Of a DNA stretch of 64,000 bases, positions 10,031-27,144 are shown one piece after another. The stretch spans positions 13,826,372-13,890,371 of the forward strand of contig CM119271.1 in NCBI GenBank assembly GCA_051294375.1. The letters run 5' to 3'. The notes below the pieces were generated by a model that was not told where the DNA came from, did not search any database, and was given only the letters and a program-made list of their open reading frames with translations. This DNA is from Paraspadella gotoi. Lineage: Eukaryota > Animalia > Chaetognatha. Position 1 is the stretch's first letter. The number at the start of each line of letters is the position of its first letter. The translations under genes and the position numbers were made by a program.

Positions 10031-13000
10031 ATGGCGATGAGCGGCGCCATCGATGGCGGCTTCGTCAGCGCCGCCCCCAGAGCCGGCGCGGTAACGGGCG
10101 TGGCGGTGATTCGTCGCAACCTCGAATCGATCGAATCAACTTTTCTTCTTCTCTCCGTCGACGAAAAACAAAAGGCAATCGCCGTCATCGTTCGCTTCGT
10201 GCAAAAGTTGCAAGATGAGGCCGATAGAGGGATTTTGAAGCAGAAAACGCCTCCTCCGGAACGCTTTGTTAAAGCGGAAAATTGCGTTGACGAAAAACTC
10301 GATCGAAGGGTTCGATCGAAACAAACTCCGCAATTTTTGCAAGTGGAACAATCCCTCCAACCGTTGGAACTCGACGATCTTCCCCGGCTGCTGCTGGCTG
10401 CTTCCCCGCGGCCGCTCGAGCAGCAGCAGTCTCCGCAGGTCTCAGATCGTCACCGCGACCCCGAAATTGAGGCTTCGTCGAAGGACCAATTGACGGCTTT
10501 GGATGACGTGGTTGACGACGACGCAATCTTGCAAAACTGTGCATTGGAGGTGGATTTGGACTTCAGCGCGTCCCCAGGGGAAATGGGCGGGGAGGCGTCT
10601 GCAGAGGCGGGGAACGTCGCCGACTCGATCGACTCTGCCGCTACCGAGGAAATGAAGGGCGTCGACGAAGACGTCGAGGACAACTCGAGACGATCTCATC
10701 TGTATTCTGACTTCGTTTGGGATGACGAAGACGACGAGGACGACAACGAAGTCCAGGATAAAGACGACGACTCTTGGGAACCGGGCGCCAAAGTTGCTCG
10801 AATGGTGACGAGAAAGAGGAGACGAAGGCGAGGTGCTTATGGAGAAAGTCCGAAAAAACGAAGAACCGGAACCGGCGTCGTAGGCGATTTCGATTTCGAC
10901 GCCGGACGCGATGGAGGTGGCGATGACGTCGTGGTCGGCGAAGAGAGAATCAACGGCGTCGGAATTTGCGGCGACGAAGACGACGGCGTTGAAGCCGTGG
11001 CGGCGTGGGTGTTGGACAAGATGATCGATTGCGTGGAGAGAGGGATCGAGTATGAAGCGAAGGATGACGAGGAAGAGAAGGTTAATTTTTTCTTATAAGT
11101 ATCTCGAATAAAAAAGTTTATTATTACGCAATTACATTATCATTCTATCTGATTCTAGGATCCCGCCGGAGATCCTTGCTCGTCCACGCCCGCTCCCCTT
11201 GATCGACCCCATCTCGAAACTTCCCTCGCCGAGCGAACGATGCTTCCCTACAAAGTGAGAATGTCCGCCGTCGAAGTCGCTCGCCTCGTCGCTAACGGCG
11301 CCCTCGAAACCAAAGACAATACCCCCACCGTCACTTCGACAGACTCTTCCACTCTCCCCACCTGCCTCTCTTGCGGCGCTGTCTTTCAACGACGCCGCCA
11401 ACTCGGCGTCCACCTACGCGACGACCACGAAGCGGCGGCGTTGTCTTGTCGCCGATGCCGTTGCCAATTTCTTAATCCGGCGGAATGGTTGCACCACGGG
11501 CCTTGCGGGTAAGTATTTATTATTATTATTATTATTATTAAACGTTATAAGCTATCTCATCAATTATTACAATAATCAAATATTTCATCAATACAATCGT
11601 GATTCCAATTCGGAAAGTTGAGTGCCCAACAGCGGGGATGTTATTTTGAGTTATCTCAAATGCTGCTATATGCAAATAAGATTGAAAATCCTAGTACAAT
11701 TTTGTATAATTTCATTCTTTATATTTCATAATATGTTTCCATTTCCCGACGCTAGTTCCTCGAGGACGCCGTCGGGCACGCCGATAGCTCCGACGGAACC
11801 ATCGACGGGCGTCTCGAAATTCTCTTGGCCAACTTCGCCAGTCATCGATCTTTATTCCTGCCCCATCTGTGGAGTCTTGATGGAATCCGCCCTCGGGTTG
11901 CAACGGCATCTCTTGAATCACGTCCGTAACCAATGCAGGTTTGATCCTTTCTAGTTTTCTTGTTAAAGTTTTGATATCGACATTATTCTCCTCCTGAAAT
12001 ACCAGAGTTTGTCTCCAACTCTTCCCTACGAAGAAACTCCTCTCCTCTCACCTGCAATCTTCTCACGACGCCAGCATTTCCGACTCCAAGTACATTTGTC
12101 GTTTTTGCCAAAGAAGATTTTCAAAAATAACCGCGCTCTACCTTCATTTAAAAGTAAGAGCGAATCGACGACGCAGTAGAAAAGAGACTCGTTTTCCTTT
12201 TGTTTACTAAAAGCTCTCGTCCTCAAGGTTCACGCGGATGGAGAGCAAAGGGTCTGCCTCAAGTGCGGCTTTTTGAGCGAAACGCAAATCGCCTTCGAAA
12301 AGCACATGCAAGCCCACGCCCTCCACGCTCAGTTCGCCTGCGACAAGTGTTCAAGGTAAACTTAAAAGGTTGAGGAGGAGAAAATGTAAAGGGTAAGTCA
12401 TGAAAAATGTAAAAGGAGATATAGAAATTCTTGTTTCTGTCCCTAGCACCTTCGATCGGGCCCAATATTTGCAGAGCCACTTGAAGTCTCACCAAAAGTG
12501 GGACTGCAGCATGTGCGACGAGAAACATTCGCAAAGAAGAGAATTCGAACAGCATTGCAGGTTGAAATTTTGCTTTTTTCTTTAATTATTTTCTTTTATT
12601 TATTTGTGTTGTTTTCCTCTTTTCACAGGCGCGCCCACGGTCTTCGCCTTATCGACGTCCGATCCTTCTCTTGTCCACATTGCCCCTCGATCGATTTTCC
12701 GTCGCGCTACAAACTCGGCGTCCACATCGCCGAGTCTCACGCCGACGCCAGGTTTTAATTTATGATCGGTTAATATCGAAATTGACTTCATGCGTATAAT
12801 AAATATTACTATCACTGTAGTACGTAAAATTATTTGATTATTTTGTATCAATTTCTAAGGCCTCATGTCTGCCGCATCTGCAAGCGGAGTTTCGATGATG
12901 AGGCCAAGTTGACGAAGCACTTGGAGTCGGAAACTCACCGGTTCAAAGCCGGCATTGCTAACAAAGGTGGCCCCAGTTATAGTTCAGTTTTCGCTTCGCT

Positions 13001-15155
13001 TTGGTTTCTTATTACTTATAAATTGATGACCAATATCTAACCATCTCGTATTTTAAAATGGCAGAATCGCTTGGAGTCGAATTTGCTTGCGATAAATGCG
13101 ACGCGACTTTCGACCGAAAGGAGAGACTCGATCGACATCTTAAAACGCACGAACCGGATCGACCGTTTCAGTGCATTCTTTGTCCCTTTTCCTGCAAGGT
13201 AATGTTAATAAATTATAACTTATTGATTAGACTGTCTCTTATGTCATTTTGTTTTCCAGGAAAAGGCGAATTTGAAAAATCACCTCAAGCGTCACACTTC
13301 CGAGCGAGACTTCGTTTGTCGACTCTGTGGCGCCGGGTTTCAGACGAAGAAGACGCTCGAGGTACAGCGCCTTAGAAAGGTGTTAAATTTCACCTGTTAA
13401 TGATAATAATAATCACAAATGTTCCCTATTTTTAGGATCACAACACATACGTTCACTCGGATCAAAGAGATTTTACCTGCGAGGATTGTCCCCGTGCCTT
13501 TAAATCGAGCAAGGATCTGCAAAGACACGCGTGAGATTGCAATGATAATAATGAAAATGACTAATAAATGACAACTTCTTTAAATCCCGGCAGTCGTTCC
13601 GTTCACGCCAACCTCCGACCCCACATCTGCAAAGTCTGCGACAAAGCCTTCAAGCGCAAAGCCAACGTGCGTCGCCACTTATTGACTTCGCACGGAATTT
13701 CTTTACCGACGACCAGAGTGAAAAAATTCGATCGTGAGGTAAATCGATTGGTTTGGTTCGTCCCTTTGCTCAAAATTTATGGCCCAATAAAGAAATTTGA
13801 CTCGTCTCTCTAGAACGAATCCTCTGTCGGAAACTCCTCCACTTCGACCGTCGATCCGGGCGCCGTCGCCGAGAACCTTTTGGAGACTGGGCGACGAGTC
13901 TCAAAAGAAAAATTTCTACGTTCCACGCCGTCGTCGAAGCCGACGCCAAGGACGTCGACGATTGTCGCCGTGGAATCGTCGGCAGAATCTTCTTTCAACG
14001 CATCTCGAGACTCTGTTCTTCGTCGGACGCTGATTGCCGAATCGTCGGCGATTCAGGCGCCACAAAAGGCGCCGGTTTCGATGTCATCCGGTCACGTGGA
14101 CTCGTTAGTATCGGCGGCGCTACCTCCCGTTGCAAGGATGGTTCCGCCATCGACGAGGAAAATCGATTTAGCCACTTATCAACGTCAACCAGCGACTCAT
14201 AGGTCGGCATCGAAGTCAGCGCCGCAATTAGGCGCCGCGGACCCCATGACGGAAATAATAGTGACTGTAGATCCGAACGGCGCCATCATGGGCGTTGACG
14301 CCGGAAGTGAGGCCGAGTCGACGTTGCTTAGACTCGACGGTAATTATCTGATTGCGTTGGTGTTCGTTTCAAGTTAAGGTCTTCAGAGTAATAAGCCCGA
14401 CTTATGCTCAAATTAACTGTTATTTTTGCAGAATAGATATGAAATTAGTACAACCAATCAAATAAATTATCCATTCATTTAATAAGTAAGCAATCATGCC
14501 CCTAACATTGGACAGGCTTTGGTGGTTTAAAGCCTCCATCACTTACAAGATAATGACATAGAAAATCTCTGCAAGCTTTACAAATTTACCTCAACACCAT
14601 TTTTTTCCACCATTAGGACCCAACGGAGAGACGACGCTCATTCCTCTCCAACCTGAAAACTCGAGTCTTCGTTACACAGTCGAGACCGGTCAATCTCTCC
14701 ACGCCAATGTTTCCGCCCCATTAGCCACTGCTTCTCCATCGGTTGCCAATGGATTCCCAGTTTCTGAGGAATTTCGAGTTGACTATGCGGCGCCTTTAAG
14801 TCAATCCTCGGTTATTGATTCTCCTTCTGCTCCGACCGCTCGCGGTTCCCACGACTTCGTCGTTTGTCCTCGATTCTCCGATAATGCTTCGGGCGTCGCG
14901 CTCGACGCCGCCACGGAACTCTGCGTCATCGGCGACGCCTCTAGTTCTAAATCGTCGCTTCACTTCCGGTCCGGCGCCGACAACGCCGTCATGGCGCCGT
15001 CGAATGGCGATACAAACGCCGAGACGATCGTGTTGGCGGCGATGGACGACGGCGCCGGCGTCTTTGTCGAGGGAGGAAACGGCGTCGCGGATTTAAACGG
15101 CGCGCAAGAGATTTATTACGTCATTCAGTCGCAAGACGTCACTCATTTTATGTGA
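10031..15155 (+). CDS. Large multi-C2H2 zinc-finger transcription factor (acidic N-terminus, more than 10 fingers, low-complexity tail)
   Basis: Many C2H2 fingers over small exons (CPICG..HLLNH, CDKCDATFDRKERLDRHLKTHEPDRPFQC, CKVCDKAFKRKANVRRHLLTSH); ends IYYVIQSQDVTHFM*. Confidence 0.85.
14438..14540. repeat. Interspersed repeat; further copies at ~54074-54164 and, split, at ~41670-41705 plus 42213-42275
   Basis: Reverse complement of TTAAACCACCATAGCCTGTCCAAAGTCAGGGGCAAGATAGCTTATTTATTAAATGAATGGATAATTT (54074 onward). Confidence 0.75.
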
Positions 15156-15426
15156 TTTTTTTTTTTAATTCTATATTTCGCGCAAGAATCTGGGCATTGA
15201 ATATGTTCGTCTCATGTTGTTTTTTTTTTCGTTCTTTTATACGAGGAACGTGAATTGGCATTTGAAATCTTATACTTTTTTCTTTAGTTAAAAACTCATC
15301 AAACTCGAAAAGAAACCCACTATGTCTATGACGTGGAAAAAGTGAAAAAAAAGAGACGAGTGTGAAAAGGAATTTGTGAGAAAGAAAAACGTTTTGATTC
15401 GCTGCTTTGAGAGATCGAGCGACGCG

Positions 15427-16575
15427 ATGCCGCGAATCCTCTTCATTCCCGCCATTTTCTTGGCTTCGACTCTCGGTCTTTACTTTTTGGCGACTTCGCT
15501 TCCGGAGATGAAAGAGACGCCCAAAGTGGAAGAGGTCGACGCCGACGTCATCATAACTGGTGAGAGAAAAAAAGAAACGTGAAATAAAGAGAATCAAAAG
15601 AAACGGAATGAGAAACAAAACTAAAAAAATGCAATACCCATTACCCAACAACTGCATTATCCTCTCCAGATCCCGACGCAGACTCCCAGCACCCCATCTC
15701 CAGCCGCCTTCACTTCCCCACAAACCTGGACGAACTTCGCTCACTGGCCAAGTCGCTTCGCCGCTACCACGACCATAATCATCTCCGCGTTTTCATCATC
15801 TTCTCCGCCGCCTTCGTCTACAAGCAGACCTTCTCCATTCCCGGGTCGGCCTTGCTCAACATGCTGGCCGGAGCCGTTTTCGGCACGGTCATGGGTTTTC
15901 CACTAGTCTGCGTATTAACTGGTGATTTAAGATGATCCTGGCGACTCTTTAAGCATTGTTCATTTTACTAATTCTTTCCCCAGCCTTCGGCGCCACCATG
16001 GCCTACCTCATGACTCGCGCCTTTGCCGCATCCATCGTCGAGTCTTATTTCCCCGACCGCTTGGCGGCGCTGCGTCATCGCGTCGCCGAGGAACGTAAGG
16101 CCGGAAGCCTCTTCCTCTTCCTGCTCTTCGCGCGCCTATTTCCTGTCACGCCCAATTGGATGCTCAACATTGCTTCGCCGCTGGCAGGTCACTTATTGTT
16201 TCCGAGAGATCCTTTCCAAGGTCGCGGTGTTATTAAAACAGCGTCATTTAAAGAGCGTTATTTAAACAGCGTGAGGTAAACAGCGTTATTCAAACAGCGT
16301 TAGTTAAACAGCATAAGTAAAACAACTTTATATAAACAGCGTTTAAATGGACATCTCTTTTCTTAGGCGTCACTCTTGCATACTTCATCCCCACCATCGG
16401 ACTTGGCCTCGTTCCTTACAACTTCATCTGCGTCTCCACGGGTTCGATCCTCAGCGAAATCCGTTCCGTCGAGGACGTCTTCACGTGGGAAGTCATAATG
16501 CGGCTCTGCGGCGTCTCCTCTGTTGCGCTGGCGTTGGCGCTGTTTCGACGCCGCCGGAAGAAGCCCGACTTATGA
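15427..16575 (+). CDS. TMEM41A: TMEM41A (VTT/DedA-family membrane protein), 4 exons
   Basis: LHFPTNLDELRSL, YKQTFSIPGSALLNMLAGAVFG, LFLFLLFARLFPVTPNWMLNIASP, GLVPYNFICV motifs. Confidence 0.9.
16230..16345. repeat. Degenerate ~13-bp intronic tandem repeat (TAAACAGCGTTAT)
   Basis: Repeated AAACAGCG units in TMEM41A intron 3. Confidence 0.7.
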
Positions 16576-17308
16576 TGCGTGAGCGTGACCGACTCGGGGG
16601 AGGGGAACCGATTTGTTTTTGGCTTTATATCTGTGATTCTCGTTTTGTTTTTCCTGTTGTTAAACTTTAATCCCTTTTCGATCTCAAAAGTTTGGTCGCC
16701 TTCGGTAACGTGTATGTTTTTGATTGGCGTCGATTTAAAAAAACGTGCCTCTCTTTTGTCAATTAATTTTTTTTTTTTTCGCCCGTTTTTTCGATCAAAT
16801 TCTTACCTCAAAATACGATTACTCTCGTATTATGCCATAACTAGTGTAATATGAATGGAAATCCCCAGCTGATTAGGAACATAAGGTATGGTCGCATAGC
16901 AGAAAACAGATTTAAAAAAAAACAGAGATTGCGTTCTTGTTTGCTAAATCATAAATATTCCTATACTTACATTCCTAAGAAAAAGAAAAGATGGTTCCCT
17001 TCATTTTATCTTTTCCTCATTGGCCGATTTTCTGTGATACGTCGTCATTTTCTTTATTTTTTTCTCAGCGATTGAATCATTTTCGAGTTTTACAATTTTT
17101 AAGAAGAATTAAAAAAATTGTAAAGATGTCGGGAAACAATTTATTCGATGCCGATAAAAATTGGGAAACGAACGGATAAAGTTTTGACAACCGAAAAAAA
17201 AACAAAAAACTCGATGAAAATCCACAGGGATTTTTAACCATATTTCTTTATAACGAAATAAAAAAACCCCAAATCGTCAAAATTGACGAGGACGACGACG
17301 GATCGAAG

Positions 17309-19380
17309 ATGTGGACGCAGATGGGTCAGCTGTTCTGGGGCGCCCGATTTCCCGGTCATCATCAGGCTCAGATGCAATCGGGATCGGGCGACCCCAAATG
17401 CTTCAACCCTTTCGGCAAGATGGACATGAGCGACCCCGCCTCCCACCTCGGTCACCCCATCATGAACAAACCGGGGCCTTCCATTCCCGGGGCCACGGGC
17501 ATGATGACCCCCAAAACCGAGGCCCCTCGCAGCGCCCACAGCGGACACGGAGGCGGGCACGGCAGCGGGCACGGAGGTGGTCACAGCGGACATCACGGAG
17601 GTCACCACGGCGGCCACCACAACAACCAAAGTCACGGCGGGAGTCATCATCACAACGAGCACGGCATGAACAACGGTCCCTCACCTCCTTCCTCTTCTTC
17701 TTCGAAACATCACAAAAGCGGAGGCGGCGGCGGAGGTGGAGGCGGCGGCGACATGGGAGGCAACCAGAGTCCCAATTACGGCCACCACAACCACTCTCAT
17801 CAGGGCGGTGGCAGCGGGGGTGGAGGTGGCAATTCCTCTTCGTCCCCTTCTCATCACCATTCCAACTCCTACCTACCCACGGCCAATAGCCCTCCCTCGC
17901 TTCACAACAACATGTCCCAACAACACGGTCCTCCCCCGCCGCCTCCTCCTCCTCATCCTCCTCAAGGGGCCACGCCTCCCACCTCCTCCTCCTCATCGGC
18001 CAACCAACCGCCGAAACCCGGTCAGGAAAGACTAAAAAAGTGCAAGGCCATTTTCGGTCAGGGACAGAAGGAACTCTGGTGCAACAAGTGTCGCTGGAAG
18101 AAAAAGTGCATCAGGTTGGGATCCCCGTCGACGCCGCACGGAGCGTCCAGTTATCGAAAGAGGCCGAAACGGTGCAAGGCCGTCTTTGGTCAGGGACAGA
18201 AGGAACTTTGGTGCAACAAGTGTCGTTGCAAGAAAAAGTGCATCAGGTTAAAATAGATTTTTTTGTTTGTATCCAAAAAAAAAAGTTTTTTAGTGTGTAA
18301 TAACGAATTTTTCTTTATTGACATAGAAAGTCGGACATGTTTCGACTCTGTCTTGAGAGTCTTCATCATCATTTAAATAATTGACAATTTTTTTCTTTAA
18401 TGCTAGTTTTTAGAGAGAGAGAAAGAGAGAGAGAGAAAGAGAGAGAGAGATTCCAACAAAAAATTGAGAAAGGACAGTGGTCAGTAAGGCGTAGTAAAAT
18501 TCCTAAGTTTAACTTTAATTAAAATTCTAAAAGTGAGGAACGAACAACATTATACTTATGAACATTTATGTATAAAAAAAATTTATAATAAATTTTACAA
18601 TTTACGCAGTAGGCCATATTTATACTAGTACTAAACCAATAAATGTTAAAATTTCAAAACAGTTTTTTCTAAGATTTTTTTGCAGATTTGGATTTGTCAT
18701 AAAAAGTTGATAAAAAGAAATATAACTCTTTTTGAAAAATTTCTTCATTAAGTGGGTCAAAAATTAGAAAAAGCTATATTTTAAGCTGAAAATTAACTTT
18801 TTATATATTAAATATAGTTTTTTAAATTTTTAACCCACTTAATGAAAGAATTTTTAAAAATGAATTATATTTTCTTTTATCAACTTTTGACGAGGAATTC
18901 AAATCTGCAATAAAAATTAAAAAAAGCCTATTTTGAAATTTTTCGATTTTATAAGGATAGTACTATATATAAATATAGCCTACTGCGAAAATTAAAAAAC
19001 ATAAAATTAATTTTTTTATAAAATTAATGTTCACTGATGGTATGTTGTTCATAATTGACTTTTAGAATTTTCGTATGTAGCTTTCACTACGCCTTAGTGG
19101 TCAGTTAATAGTTAACTAAGTTATTAATTTCTTTGTTACTATTAGATTAACATTGTTTGTCCATTTTAACTCTGTTATACATTGCTAAATGTAACTATTT
19201 TCTCTGCCTCTGTTTCTCTCTCTCTTCTTTCCCTCCAATTGTTTTCACCTTTCAATTTCAACCAATTTTATCTTCTTCCTTGCCCTTACCTTCACCTGTC
19301 CTCACATCTGACCAGTGACCACTGTCCTTTCTCAAATTTTTGTTGGAATCTCCCTCTTTCCCTCTCTCTCTCTCTATTTT

Positions 19381-19411
<31 letters not shown>

Positions 19412-20926
19412 TTCTCTCTCTCTCTAAAAACTAACATTAATGAGAAAAATTGTTGATTATTTAAATGCTGATGAAGACTCTCAAGACAGTCGAAACATGT
19501 CCGACTTTCTATGTCAATAAAGAAAAATTCGTTGTTACACACTAAAAAACTGTTTTTTCCTTAAATCTAATTAATATTATTAATTTTTATTAATTTATAC
19601 TTCCCAGATTCCCGGAGACGGATCCGAAGGACGATTCCGTCGTGACCAAAAAACCCAAATCTAAGAAGAAGATTCCCGATCCGCCGACGCAGGTCCCGCC
19701 TCAGCATTACCGATACCAAAACCCACCGCCGGATATCCCGCCGATGACGCAACAGCAGCAGCAGCCTTGGTTAGAATTTTCATTAATTTTTTTACAGACA
19801 TCGAATTTTTGACGTGTTTCTTTAAAATGCATGAACTGAATTAATCTTGTAGAAGAATGAAAAGGCTTATATTATTTCTGTATTAGGTACATGTCGCCGG
19901 ATTTGCTGCAGCAGCATCAACAACAACAGCAACAGCACCGTTACCGGAACTCGATGTCGTCCGGCGAACATTCTCCCCCTTCATCTTCCTCTTCCTCCTC
20001 CGCTCCCCCGATCAACCCGCAGTACCATCGCTACTCGTCGCCGGGAAGTAAGTTACTTAGGCCTTAGGTTGTCATTTACGACCGCCTTTAAGTTACTTAG
20101 CCTTGGGTTGTCATTGACGACCAACTTTAAGTTACTTAGCCTTAGGTTGTCATTTACGACCAACTTTAAGTTACTTAGCCTTAGGTTGTCATTTAGGACC
20201 GACTTTAAGTTACTTAGCCTTAGGTTGTCATTTACGACCGACTTTAACTCATCATCTTCGATTGACATTTCCTTTTTCATAGGCCATCACATGCCGCCTT
20301 CTCCGGGCAGCGTTCCCCCGCAATTCCTGGGCCAAATGCCCCCGGGATTCGGTAGTCTCGAAGCGACGAAGGTGGGCAAGTCGCCCGTCAATCACCTCAA
20401 GCCGTCGACGTCGTCCTCTTCGTCGTCCTCGCTGCATAAGGACTCGATGCAGGGACAAAAATCCCCGCCCTTCAACCCCGAAGCTCTTTTCGACGCCAAC
20501 GCGGCGGCGCTGGCGCCTCCGCCGCCGCCGCCGGGCGCCGCCTCGGCCACTCGAAAGTGCAGGGCTCTCTACGGTTTCGAGATGAAGAACAAGTGGTGCA
20601 AACCGTGCCGGAACAAGAAGCGATGCATACAGTCAGTATCGCTAGTGGGAAATAGTTTACGTTTAGAGTTGAATGAATTAAATTTGAACAATATTTAAAT
20701 TTTAATCAGCTTCAAAACGGAAGAAAAGCCGCCGCCGCCCTTCAACCCGGAATCTCTCTTCGAGGAAGGAATTGGGAGTGCGCCGGATGGTTTACCGCCG
20801 CCGCCTCCTCCGCCCCCTGGCGCCGCTTCCGCCAGCAGGAAATGCCGGGCGCTCTACGGATTCGAGCAGAAGAGCAAGTGGTGCAAGCGCTGCCGGAACA
20901 AGAAGCGATGCATTCAGTTTATTTGA
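17309..20926 (+). CDS. Protein with four C-clamp (TCF CRARF-type Cys4 zinc) domains and His/Gly/Pro/Gln-rich linkers; exons 17309-18246, 19608-19769, 19887-20047, 20283-20631, 20710-20926 (~608 aa)
   Basis: KKCKAIFGQGQKELWCNKCRWKKKCIR, KRCKAVFGQGQKELWCNKCRCKKKCIR, RKCRALYGFEMKNKWCKPCRNKKRCIH and RKCRALYGFEQKSKWCKRCRNKKRCIQF match the C-clamp consensus KKCRARFG-x5-WCxxCRRKKKC; all junctions are GT-AG and phase-compatible (1827 nt). Confidence 0.8.
18485..19096. mobile_element. Foldback MITE with long imperfect TIRs and a target-site duplication
   Basis: Ends TAAGGCGTAGT...ACTACGCCTTA; flanked by direct repeat GTGGTCAG (8 bp, or AGTGGTCAGT, 10 bp); internal halves are reverse-complementary; related copy at ~41710-42210. 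Confidence 0.85.
19468..19501 (+). ncRNA. Minimal type-I hammerhead ribozyme-like motif (Penelope-type), possibly degenerate
   Basis: CTGATGA-a-GAC..GTC-GAAAC-ATGT-C; palindromic ACATGT stem III; the antisense copy at 18334-18369 has a perfect 6-bp stem II but CUGA changed to AUGA; stem I is weak. Confidence 0.55.
20047..20246. repeat. 39-bp tandem minisatellite (~5 copies) filling an intron
   Basis: Unit AAGTTACTTAGCCTTAGGTTGTCATTTACGACCGACTTT. Confidence 0.95.
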
Positions 20927-22330
20927 GTAGGGAGGGACTCATTATCTTTCTTGACCCTTTCCGAGCGAGCCATTCTTTTTATTATTATTGAAACAGATCT
21001 CATCGTTGTTGCGAAAGCATATTGTAGACTTCGCTACATTTTTATAGTCGACACGAACTATTCTTGTATCATTTTTTTTTCGCGTGTAAATATTTCCGTC
21101 AGGAATCTTTCGTCGTTTTGAAACAATACTAAGAAGAAAAACTTTGATGTAGGTATTTTTACGGAAATGTAAGAAAAGTTTTTAAAAAATAATATCTCAA
21201 GGATGAAGTTGAAGCAAATGTCTTTTTGTCAAAATGTCCTTTTCGCCCGGGGTAACGAAAAACTGTCACCTCTGCAGTTTCCATTTTCCCACTTTTCTTT
21301 TTACTTTTGAATACGGACGACAAAAGAGGGTGCGCTTTTCTTTCGTCGCTCACCCTCTGACTTTTCTCTGCATAATTAATAGATAGCATATTTATATCGG
21401 CTCATGAAATAGATTTGCTTTCCTAATTTTTACGGATGATTCATTGTTATGTATCGATTTCTCATATTTCTCGAACGAACTACATTTGTAAAAAGAAAAA
21501 AAAACCATCAAATGCGACTTTTTTTTTCCAGTCTTCCCCGAAGTCTGCCCCGTTCCCTTGATCCCCCATTACGTTCTCAAGGCCGGCGTTTGGATGATTA
21601 GACGGACTGTAAAATAGTAATATTCCCGCGTCTTTTCTAATCCCATCATTAGCGTTTTACTATTAGAGGTGATAAAAAAAGAAAATTCCCCAGCAAATGA
21701 TATTTTTTACTCTCCATCAACCGAATACGTATTTTGAAAATCATCACCGCGAATCTCGATTGAATTTGTTGATTTGTAGATACGAGACCACGACGCTCTC
21801 CGCCGTTTTATTACTTCTCCTCTGCAACGTCACCTCTTTATTTTTAGTCGTTTTTTGGTTCGAATAAAATTAGGAACAACTATTTTTTTTAAAGAAATAT
21901 TTTATCTATGATTTCGGAAAAAAAAATTGATTGGCTTGTTAGTTTTTATTTTTTGTTAGCATAATATTTTAAAGTTATTAAATCTAAAGTAAAGTTTCCC
22001 GATGGTTCGTTTTGCAACTTCACTTCTTTGGTCGCAGCTATTTTATCCAGTTTCACCGTCTTTTGTTTTTTGGCCTCTTTTATTGTCAAAAAAAAAATCC
22101 TTTAATCACTTAGATGACAAATAAATTTAAAAAGGAAAAAAAACGATGTCTCGACTCTCGAGTTATTCTCGCTGTGTTGCGCGTTGCGCTTTTGTTTTGA
22201 TGGACATCAAAGACAAGAGACAACCATGTCTCTTAACGGAGCCAACAAACTTAAAATAAAAAATTACACTCTGGATTGAATAAGATTCACTGAGTCTGAA
22301 TTAAAACGAAAAAAAAAAAACTGGTTTAAA

Positions 22331-27144
<4,814 letters not shown>

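Follow-up and report, generated by a model that had tools for sequence, protein, structure and literature searches.

A chaetognath gene encoding four C-clamps and no HMG box, apparently a doubled form of a two-clamp family

Can C-clamps be strung together in one chain as the only DNA-binding domains of a protein? The question is raised by a gene in a 64,000-nucleotide (nt) stretch of the Paraspadella gotoi genome (GenBank assembly GCA_051294375.1, contig CM119271.1, forward-strand positions 13,826,372 to 13,890,371; hereafter the window, whose own numbering is used throughout), which carries four C-clamps. The papers cited here are represented by parts of their texts, and what we take from them extends to those parts. 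In these, the clamp proteins named are only TCFs, three mammalian HDBP/ZNF proteins and fly Glut4EF (PMC4999783), only single clamps are described in PMC11601247, PMC4267635 and PMC5996498, and clamps are split into a Glut4EF/ZNF395 and a LEF/TCF clade (PMC13538051). The Cys spacing of the domain is defined in PMC4999783, and its activity is reported to depend on zinc and to require four Cys and basic residues (PMC3896468), with Cys, spacing and basic stretches needed for zinc and Helper-site binding (PMC3896468, PMC4999783).

The clamp gene consists of five exons with GT..AG borders and end phases of 2, 2, 1, 2 and 0, which together encode 608 amino acids (aa) and a stop codon. Among three sequencing runs listed, the X1 run holds 0.60 of the sampled words, its nature as RNA being a tool's guess, and yields a 6983-nt contig that removes all four introns at GT..AG ends, shows no break between 16365 and 18243 and extends as far as 21960. 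The four clamps therefore sit on one spliced molecule, without an upstream exon in this contig; in addition, an in-frame stop lies directly ahead of 17180, upstream of the start codon. The preliminary description, made from the letters alone, had proposed five phase-compatible exons for ~608 aa, RNA across all four junctions as a check, and one gene without an upstream HMG-encoding exon: the exon model holds, the junctions are all joined in the X1 contig, and that contig shows a single gene. Two separate genes, or an upstream HMG exon, are ruled out for this contig, spliced as it is across all introns and continuous upstream, and a fusion with the upstream C2H2 gene is likewise ruled out, as the frames are separate, each has its own stop and a VTT-domain gene lies between them. 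An assembly artefact is unlikely to account for the duplicated clamps, because 6 of 27 codons differ between the copies in one pair and 16 of 36 in the other, and the pieces of the contig listed, with one gap, contain no differing letters.

On sequence grounds the four are real C-clamps. The pattern Cys-x12-Cys-x2-Cys-x5-Cys has only four matches in the six frames of the window, and these are clamps 1-4, with first Cys codons at 18041, 18173, 20558 and 20843 as originally proposed; 40 block shuffles gave a mean of 0.05 matches for a loose pattern and 0 for the strict one. The x12-x2-x5 spacing is kept in all four clamps, all 16 Cys are retained, and in each clamp basic residues precede the first Cys and also lie between the last two. 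A profile built from the four had 7dta_A, the SLC2A4RG C-clamp, as its only significant match in the PDB (E 2.2e-8), as did clamp 1 (E 7.7e-7) and clamp 4 (E 5.9e-6) individually. Structure prediction was less informative: a first fold prediction from 4 sequences was poor (predicted local distance difference test, pLDDT, 62), and a model for clamp 1 that drew on 41 sequences, with a mean pLDDT of 72 and no zinc, found no match with Foldseek. Using VIA-align, 7dta was the only chain of 48,161 to match this model at Z >=2, weakly (Z 2.7, root-mean-square deviation 3.4, 33 aligned).

A pattern search of the spliced 608-aa protein found no HMG box or C2H2 finger, in line with what had been noticed from the letters. 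Pfam assigned no family to three of the four pieces of the clamp-gene exons, exon 1 among them, and gave one irrelevant weak match (E 0.075) for the other, local Pfam gave no C-clamp match in the window exons or in the relatives P0014 and P0018 described below, and DUF4772 was absent from the window exons by Pfam. Relatives carry PF27556 as a precomputed label only, named ZNF704_C in the Atlas output, whose matches (0.79-0.91) we used as leads only. Outside the clamps, P, S, G, H or Q make up 62% of 492 residues; the gap within a clamp pair is 21 residues in one case and 46 in the other, and a low-complexity stretch of 201 residues separates the two pairs (Table 1).

Table 1. Features of the clamp gene, in window coordinates
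Feature	Positions	Strand	Remarks
Candidate trans-splice acceptor (weak)	17050..17068	+	pyrimidine tract and AG upstream of start codon; no donor joined in contig
Exon 1	17309..18246	+	start codon, N-terminal motif, His/Gly/Ser/Pro-rich region, clamps 1 and 2; colinear with P0014/P0018
N-terminal motif	17309..17430	+	~40 residues, LFWGARF core; common to 10 relatives; possible cofactor-docking site
C-clamp 1, type A, ancestral copy	18041..18109	+	7dta_A match; 28/29 identical to first P0014 clamp
Donor-like site after clamp 1, duplicated	18115..18120	+	read through in X1 contig
C-clamp 2, type A, tandem copy	18173..18241	+	132-nt spacing; Trp to Cys after third Cys
Intron 1	18247..19607	+	nested inverted repeats, fold-back or MITE-like (miniature inverted-repeat transposable element), apparently multi-copy
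Exon 2	19608..19769	+	basic stretch (possible nuclear localisation signal), Pro/Gln-rich linker; colinear with orthologs
Exon 3	19887..20047	+	Gln/Ser-rich linker; spliced in X1 contig
Exon 4	20283..20631	+	bears C-clamp 3 (type B)
C-clamp 3, type B	Cys codons 20558-20626	+	in exon 4
Intron 4	20632..20709	+	78 nt, between copies of duplicated terminal unit; spliced in X1 contig
Exon 5	20710..20926	+	bears C-clamp 4 (type B) and stop
C-clamp 4, type B	Cys codons 20843-20911	+	in exon 5; 7dta_A match

Are four clamps the normal state of this family? A profile search gave 9 relatives from 103 candidates, and their clusters include the full-length proteins P0014 (444 aa, JGI/IMG) and P0018 (465 aa, Logan), which align end to end with the window protein at 297/421 (71%) and 276/430 (64%) identical residues, respectively. 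Both are colinear with it and share its N-terminal motif, with the type-A clamp running on into the exon-2 region; unlike it, however, they have just two clamps each, type A in the interior and type B at the end, and lack both of its tandem duplications. No HMG box, C2H2 finger, DUF4772 or any other Pfam family was found in either. Conservation is focused on the clamps, of which two are 28/29 and 25/29 identical to those of P0014, against 297/421 overall. Types A and B are each nearly invariant across relatives and share only 12-14 of 26 residues with one another.

The first duplication in the window gene copied a 132-nt unit in which the splice donor following clamp 1 is included, and the second copied a 270-285-nt unit over the end of the last exon, with units at 20453-20633 and 20719-20918. 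None of 14 type-A relatives has a second type-A clamp, 12 of these being exon-level calls that read into the intron after the clamp, and the doubled terminal clamp is absent from the type-B relatives P0002, P0007, P0014, P0016, P0018 and P0019. Four clamps as the family state is thus rejected, the orthologs having two; by sequence comparison, two clamps appear to be the general family form and four a local doubling, seen only here among the relatives found, with the direction of change most simply taken as from two to four. Furthermore, as P0016 and P0019 each run from the exon-4 region to the stop as one open frame with one clamp, intron 4 is probably new in this species, created by the second duplication. 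Wider searches added nothing to the family: two scans of metagenome contigs gave 244 and 347 pattern matches and no confirmed relative, and a full-length search with P0014 gave 2 matches among 4865 candidates, both via the clamp only.

What would such a protein do? The reading we prefer, with moderate confidence, is that of a DNA-binding regulator in which several zinc-bound clamps in one chain give avidity on clustered GC-rich sites. The protein would be a nuclear transcriptional regulator, each clamp is predicted to bind one zinc ion together with a short stretch of DNA that is GC-rich and contains CpG, and several clamps per chain would supply the binding strength that comes from the HMG box in TCF and from apparent pairing in ZNF395-type proteins, so favouring clustered sites, while the low-complexity linkers and N-terminal motif may recruit partners or cofactors. 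The preliminary description had regarded known C-clamps as single and auxiliary; single they are in the literature found, but the text of PMC13538051 seen makes the clamp the main DNA-binding domain in ZNF395/SLC2A4RG (its Supplementary Note 1). According to the same source, the ZNF395-type clamp is enough for binding, its preferred site, CCGGCCGG, is apparently dimeric, earlier reports describe binding to unmethylated CCGG-type sequences, and CXXC proteins bind clusters of unmethylated CpG (PMC13538051). Reading of unmethylated CpG by the present clamps would be a transfer from these other clamps, and CXXC proteins, with a different Cys pattern, are a possible functional analogy only. As for the sites on offer, CpG observed/expected is 1.4 across the window (1.27-1.53 across 8 blocks), with 1010 RCCG sites in 64 kb, and so CpG-rich a window suggests that gene bodies are little methylated and that short sites are very numerous. 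As background only, loss of gene-body methylation, together with trans-splicing, is reported for nematodes, ctenophores and chaetognaths in the part of PMC12460157 consulted.

Several points weigh against this reading. Its transcript support is one contig from one run guessed to be RNA. Of the 27 codons compared between clamps 1 and 2, 3 have silent changes and 3 have changes of amino acid, which gives no clear constraint, and clamp 2, which has exchanged for Cys a Trp that is kept in type-A relatives, is less clearly maintained. Scored against profiles of the two clades (40 unique TCF clamps and 12 Glut4EF-type clamps from fetched proteins), the four clamps reach 28-51 bits, whereas true members reach at least 77 (TCF) and at least 66 (Glut4EF) in leave-one-out scoring, and their specificity may therefore differ. 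Likewise, type-A clamps have Lys where at least 90% of 41 aligned clamps have Arg, and because Lys replaces this near-invariant Arg, CpG reading by type-A clamps calls for caution. In the HT-SELEX (high-throughput systematic evolution of ligands by exponential enrichment) work, as far as PMC13538051 was available, isolated human TCF7 and TCF7L2 clamps failed, and motifs came from 9 of 17 clamp proteins tested.

A further question is which known clamp proteins come nearest. SLC2A4RG/HDBP1, ZNF395, ZNF704 and fly Glut4EF have the same Cys spacing, no HMG box and an extreme C-terminal clamp, and in the SLC2A4RG/ZNF395 group the clamp is likewise the likely main DNA-binding unit. That group, however, has one clamp and a single C2H2 finger, and P0101 also has DUF4772 (PF15997), a family that we take to be tied to Glut4EF/ZNF395, whereas in the present family the clamps number two or four and are of two types, C2H2 and DUF4772 are both missing, and there is an N-terminal motif of its own. 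TCF/LEF E-tail isoforms, Pangolin and POP-1 share the C-clamp, and the type-B clamps are nearer the TCF profile; in contrast to these proteins the window protein has no HMG box, its N-terminal motif matches no fetched TCF, and its clamps are unsplit, whereas in vertebrate-type TCF exon pieces (e.g. P0099) the clamp is split by an intron. As judged by sequence, then, the protein has C-clamps yet lacks what defines TCF and ZNF395-type proteins.

The clamps themselves lean both ways. On the TCF and Glut4EF profiles, respectively, clamp 1 scores 35.8 and 48.9 bits, clamp 2 33.4 and 36.8, clamp 3 50.6 and 28.1, and clamp 4 49.6 and 38.1, a lean that is partly circular for the Glut4EF set, which was picked by a pattern that includes Trp. 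Type-A clamps also group with Glut4EF-type clamps in a FastTree tree of 26 columns (support 0.81), and type B does not; type A thus leans towards Glut4EF and type B towards TCF, with neither cleanly inside a clade. The strongest alternative is that the gene is a strongly remodelled Glut4EF/ZNF395 ortholog that lost DUF4772 and C2H2 and multiplied its clamp. This would make it a derived offshoot of a family already known rather than a third class, and would be compatible in mechanism with the regulator proposed here. The type-A tree grouping and clamp 1 score argue for it, as do the Trp between the third and fourth Cys of type-A clamps, a mark of the Glut4EF type, and the type-B clamp that ends the protein as in the DUF4772-bearing P0101. 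None-the-less, we found no similarity outside the clamps to the Glut4EF-type proteins P0101 or P0062, neither P0014 nor P0018 retains DUF4772 or C2H2, the type-B clamps score higher on the TCF profile (~50 against 28-38 bits), and the profile test has the circularity just given; we consider this origin a serious candidate, if rather a doubtful one.

A second alternative concerns how many of the clamps matter. The working unit could be the ancestral two-clamp protein, with the extra copies, chiefly clamp 2, tolerated and of little function. The relatives lend this some weight, with no second type-A clamp in 14 and no doubled terminal clamp in the six of type B, as do the loss of Trp and the 3:3 codon ratio of clamp 2 given above. 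The in-frame donor after clamp 1 could also skip clamp 2: use of the site at 18115 would yield an in-frame three-clamp protein of 564 aa, although no such use is seen among the X1 contig joints listed. Against this, both copies are in frame in the spliced contig with all 16 Cys kept, a working intron holds clamp 4 in frame, and clamps 3 and 4 differ by 12 silent and only 4 amino-acid-changing codons of 36, an excess of silent changes that points to selection on both. On balance we think it unlikely that the copies do so little, and the regulator with several working clamps remains our preferred reading.

A loss of sequence specificity, with the clamps left to tether chromatin or nucleic acids in a general way or to bind proteins, is improbable. 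The divergence of the clamps from both known clades would fit it, as would the CpG-rich window (1.4; 1010 RCCG in 64 kb), where a 4-base site selects little; however, types A and B are each nearly invariant yet only 12-14 of 26 residues are shared, which suggests two maintained specificities. Least probable of all is that the protein works against TCF, as antagonist or decoy, by taking up Helper sites at Wnt-response elements or by binding the TCF HMG domain, for although TCF clamps bind Helper sites genome-wide (in the text seen of PMC4267635), a fly clamp can bind and inhibit the HMG domain (likewise PMC3896468) and the type-B clamps lean TCF-like, nothing ties the clamp gene to the Wnt pathway, the genes beside it are a C2H2 gene, a VTT-domain gene and IRE1, and a contig spanning adjacent genes would better fit housekeeping-type expression.

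How unusual is a protein with several clamps? A HMMER search of 1.84 billion cluster representatives gave 299 matches at E <=0.001, of which the best 150 were counted: a single complete clamp is present in 133 (69 of which show an HMG signature), 15 have none complete, 2 have two clamps and 0 more than two, the multi-clamp count being a lower bound since P0014 and P0018 are cluster members outside these 150 and many entries are single-exon calls. The preliminary description had proposed such a search for proteins with two or more hits, and multi-clamp proteins are rare among these matches, with none above two; its suggestion of an undescribed multi-clamp protein stands in so far as no multi-clamp family was found in the literature, but four clamps are not the family norm. 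The two double-clamp proteins are unrelated in layout, P0025 having a clamp at each end and a C2H2-like region, and P0048 a clamp pair ahead of the start of a UCH domain, and P0138 has a clamp followed by a C2H2 array. Single-clamp proteins without HMG or Glut4EF features were P0026, P0029, P0039, P0053, P0056, P0064, P0089, P0110, P0125, P0134, P0146 and P0165, in which the clamp is often C-terminal in a low-complexity open reading frame and some of which may be frames of mobile elements. The range of settings in which C-clamps occur seems wider than the two described clades. No multi-clamp protein was found among the papers listed in literature searches on the C-clamp, a scope outside which most subscription papers fall, and the two-clamp family and four-clamp form are apparently undescribed, a new arrangement of a known domain. 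InterPro holds more than 8,000 clamp proteins (PMC13538051, in the part seen), and some of these may have a multi-clamp layout that has gone unremarked.

Among the remaining features of the gene, the N-terminal motif has no match in 149 other fetched clamp proteins, TCFs among them (best E 1.5), or in the PDB (best E 1.1), and a short contig of the X3 run, which bears another organism code, matches 17305-17340 with 2 differences in 36 letters and may be the 5' end of an ortholog. Intron 1 contains, in 18277-19558, outer arms (18277-18347 and 19488-19558) that are 97% complementary, plus inner pairs; summed contig depth over these repeats is very high, as for a multi-copy fold-back or MITE element, and CpG observed/expected in this part is 0.58, with only 14 CpGs, against 1.4 window-wide. 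Most of intron 3, from its donor onward, is taken up by a 39-nt minisatellite of 5.1 copies (20049-20247).

The X1 contig appears to span three same-strand genes at 12239-21960, namely a C2H2 zinc-finger, a VTT-domain and the clamp gene; their introns are missing from it and the stretches between the genes are present. IRE1 is next on the same strand. The contig contains the spliced VTT-domain gene and 2163 nt before position 15000, a length in keeping with what an approximate model of the C2H2 gene's exons gives (1857 nt plus about 300); the reading frame of that upstream gene is separate and ends at 15155. That a contig crosses several genes is no proof of a single transcript, and an operon-like, trans-spliced arrangement is a weak possibility, the alternative being an assembly join through overlapping ends. 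Each intergenic gap has one acceptor-like site, at 15287, 17068 and 21531, with chances by shuffling of 0.04, 0.105 and 0.37, respectively. A 14-nt repeat of 8.2 copies (16229-16343) lies in an intron of the VTT-domain gene, and an intron in the IRE1 kinase region (25249-25430) opens with a repeated short unit that echoes the exon end. The IRE1 gene has animal relatives, with best identities of about 72-73% and no close named one among 120 listed. In a quick tree of 29 rows the window IRE1 pairs with P0168 (100) on a long branch with a placement support of 27, and falls outside an arthropod-plus-mollusc group (support 90), a position subject to the usual long-branch caveat.

The literature seen divides C-clamps between two clades with one clamp per protein, and describes the domain as possibly a large and unexplored class of DNA-binding domains. 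Tentatively, and with more doubt than belief, the present family could represent a third, undescribed class of transcription factors with C-clamps, from an animal lineage that has been little sampled, with a Glut4EF-like and a TCF-like clamp in one chain that would read unmethylated CpG clusters by avidity alone, here doubled, along with a duplication-born intron, into a four-valent reader that would mark CpG-rich unmethylated gene regions. The locus also appears to record intron gain by tandem duplication. A protein whose only DNA-binding domains are clamps offers a direct test of whether clamps string together like C2H2 fingers and asks whether the preference of ZNF395-type factors for the paired CCGGCCGG would reappear in tethered clamps, and the two-clamp orthologs and the four-clamp copy provide a ready comparison of valency.

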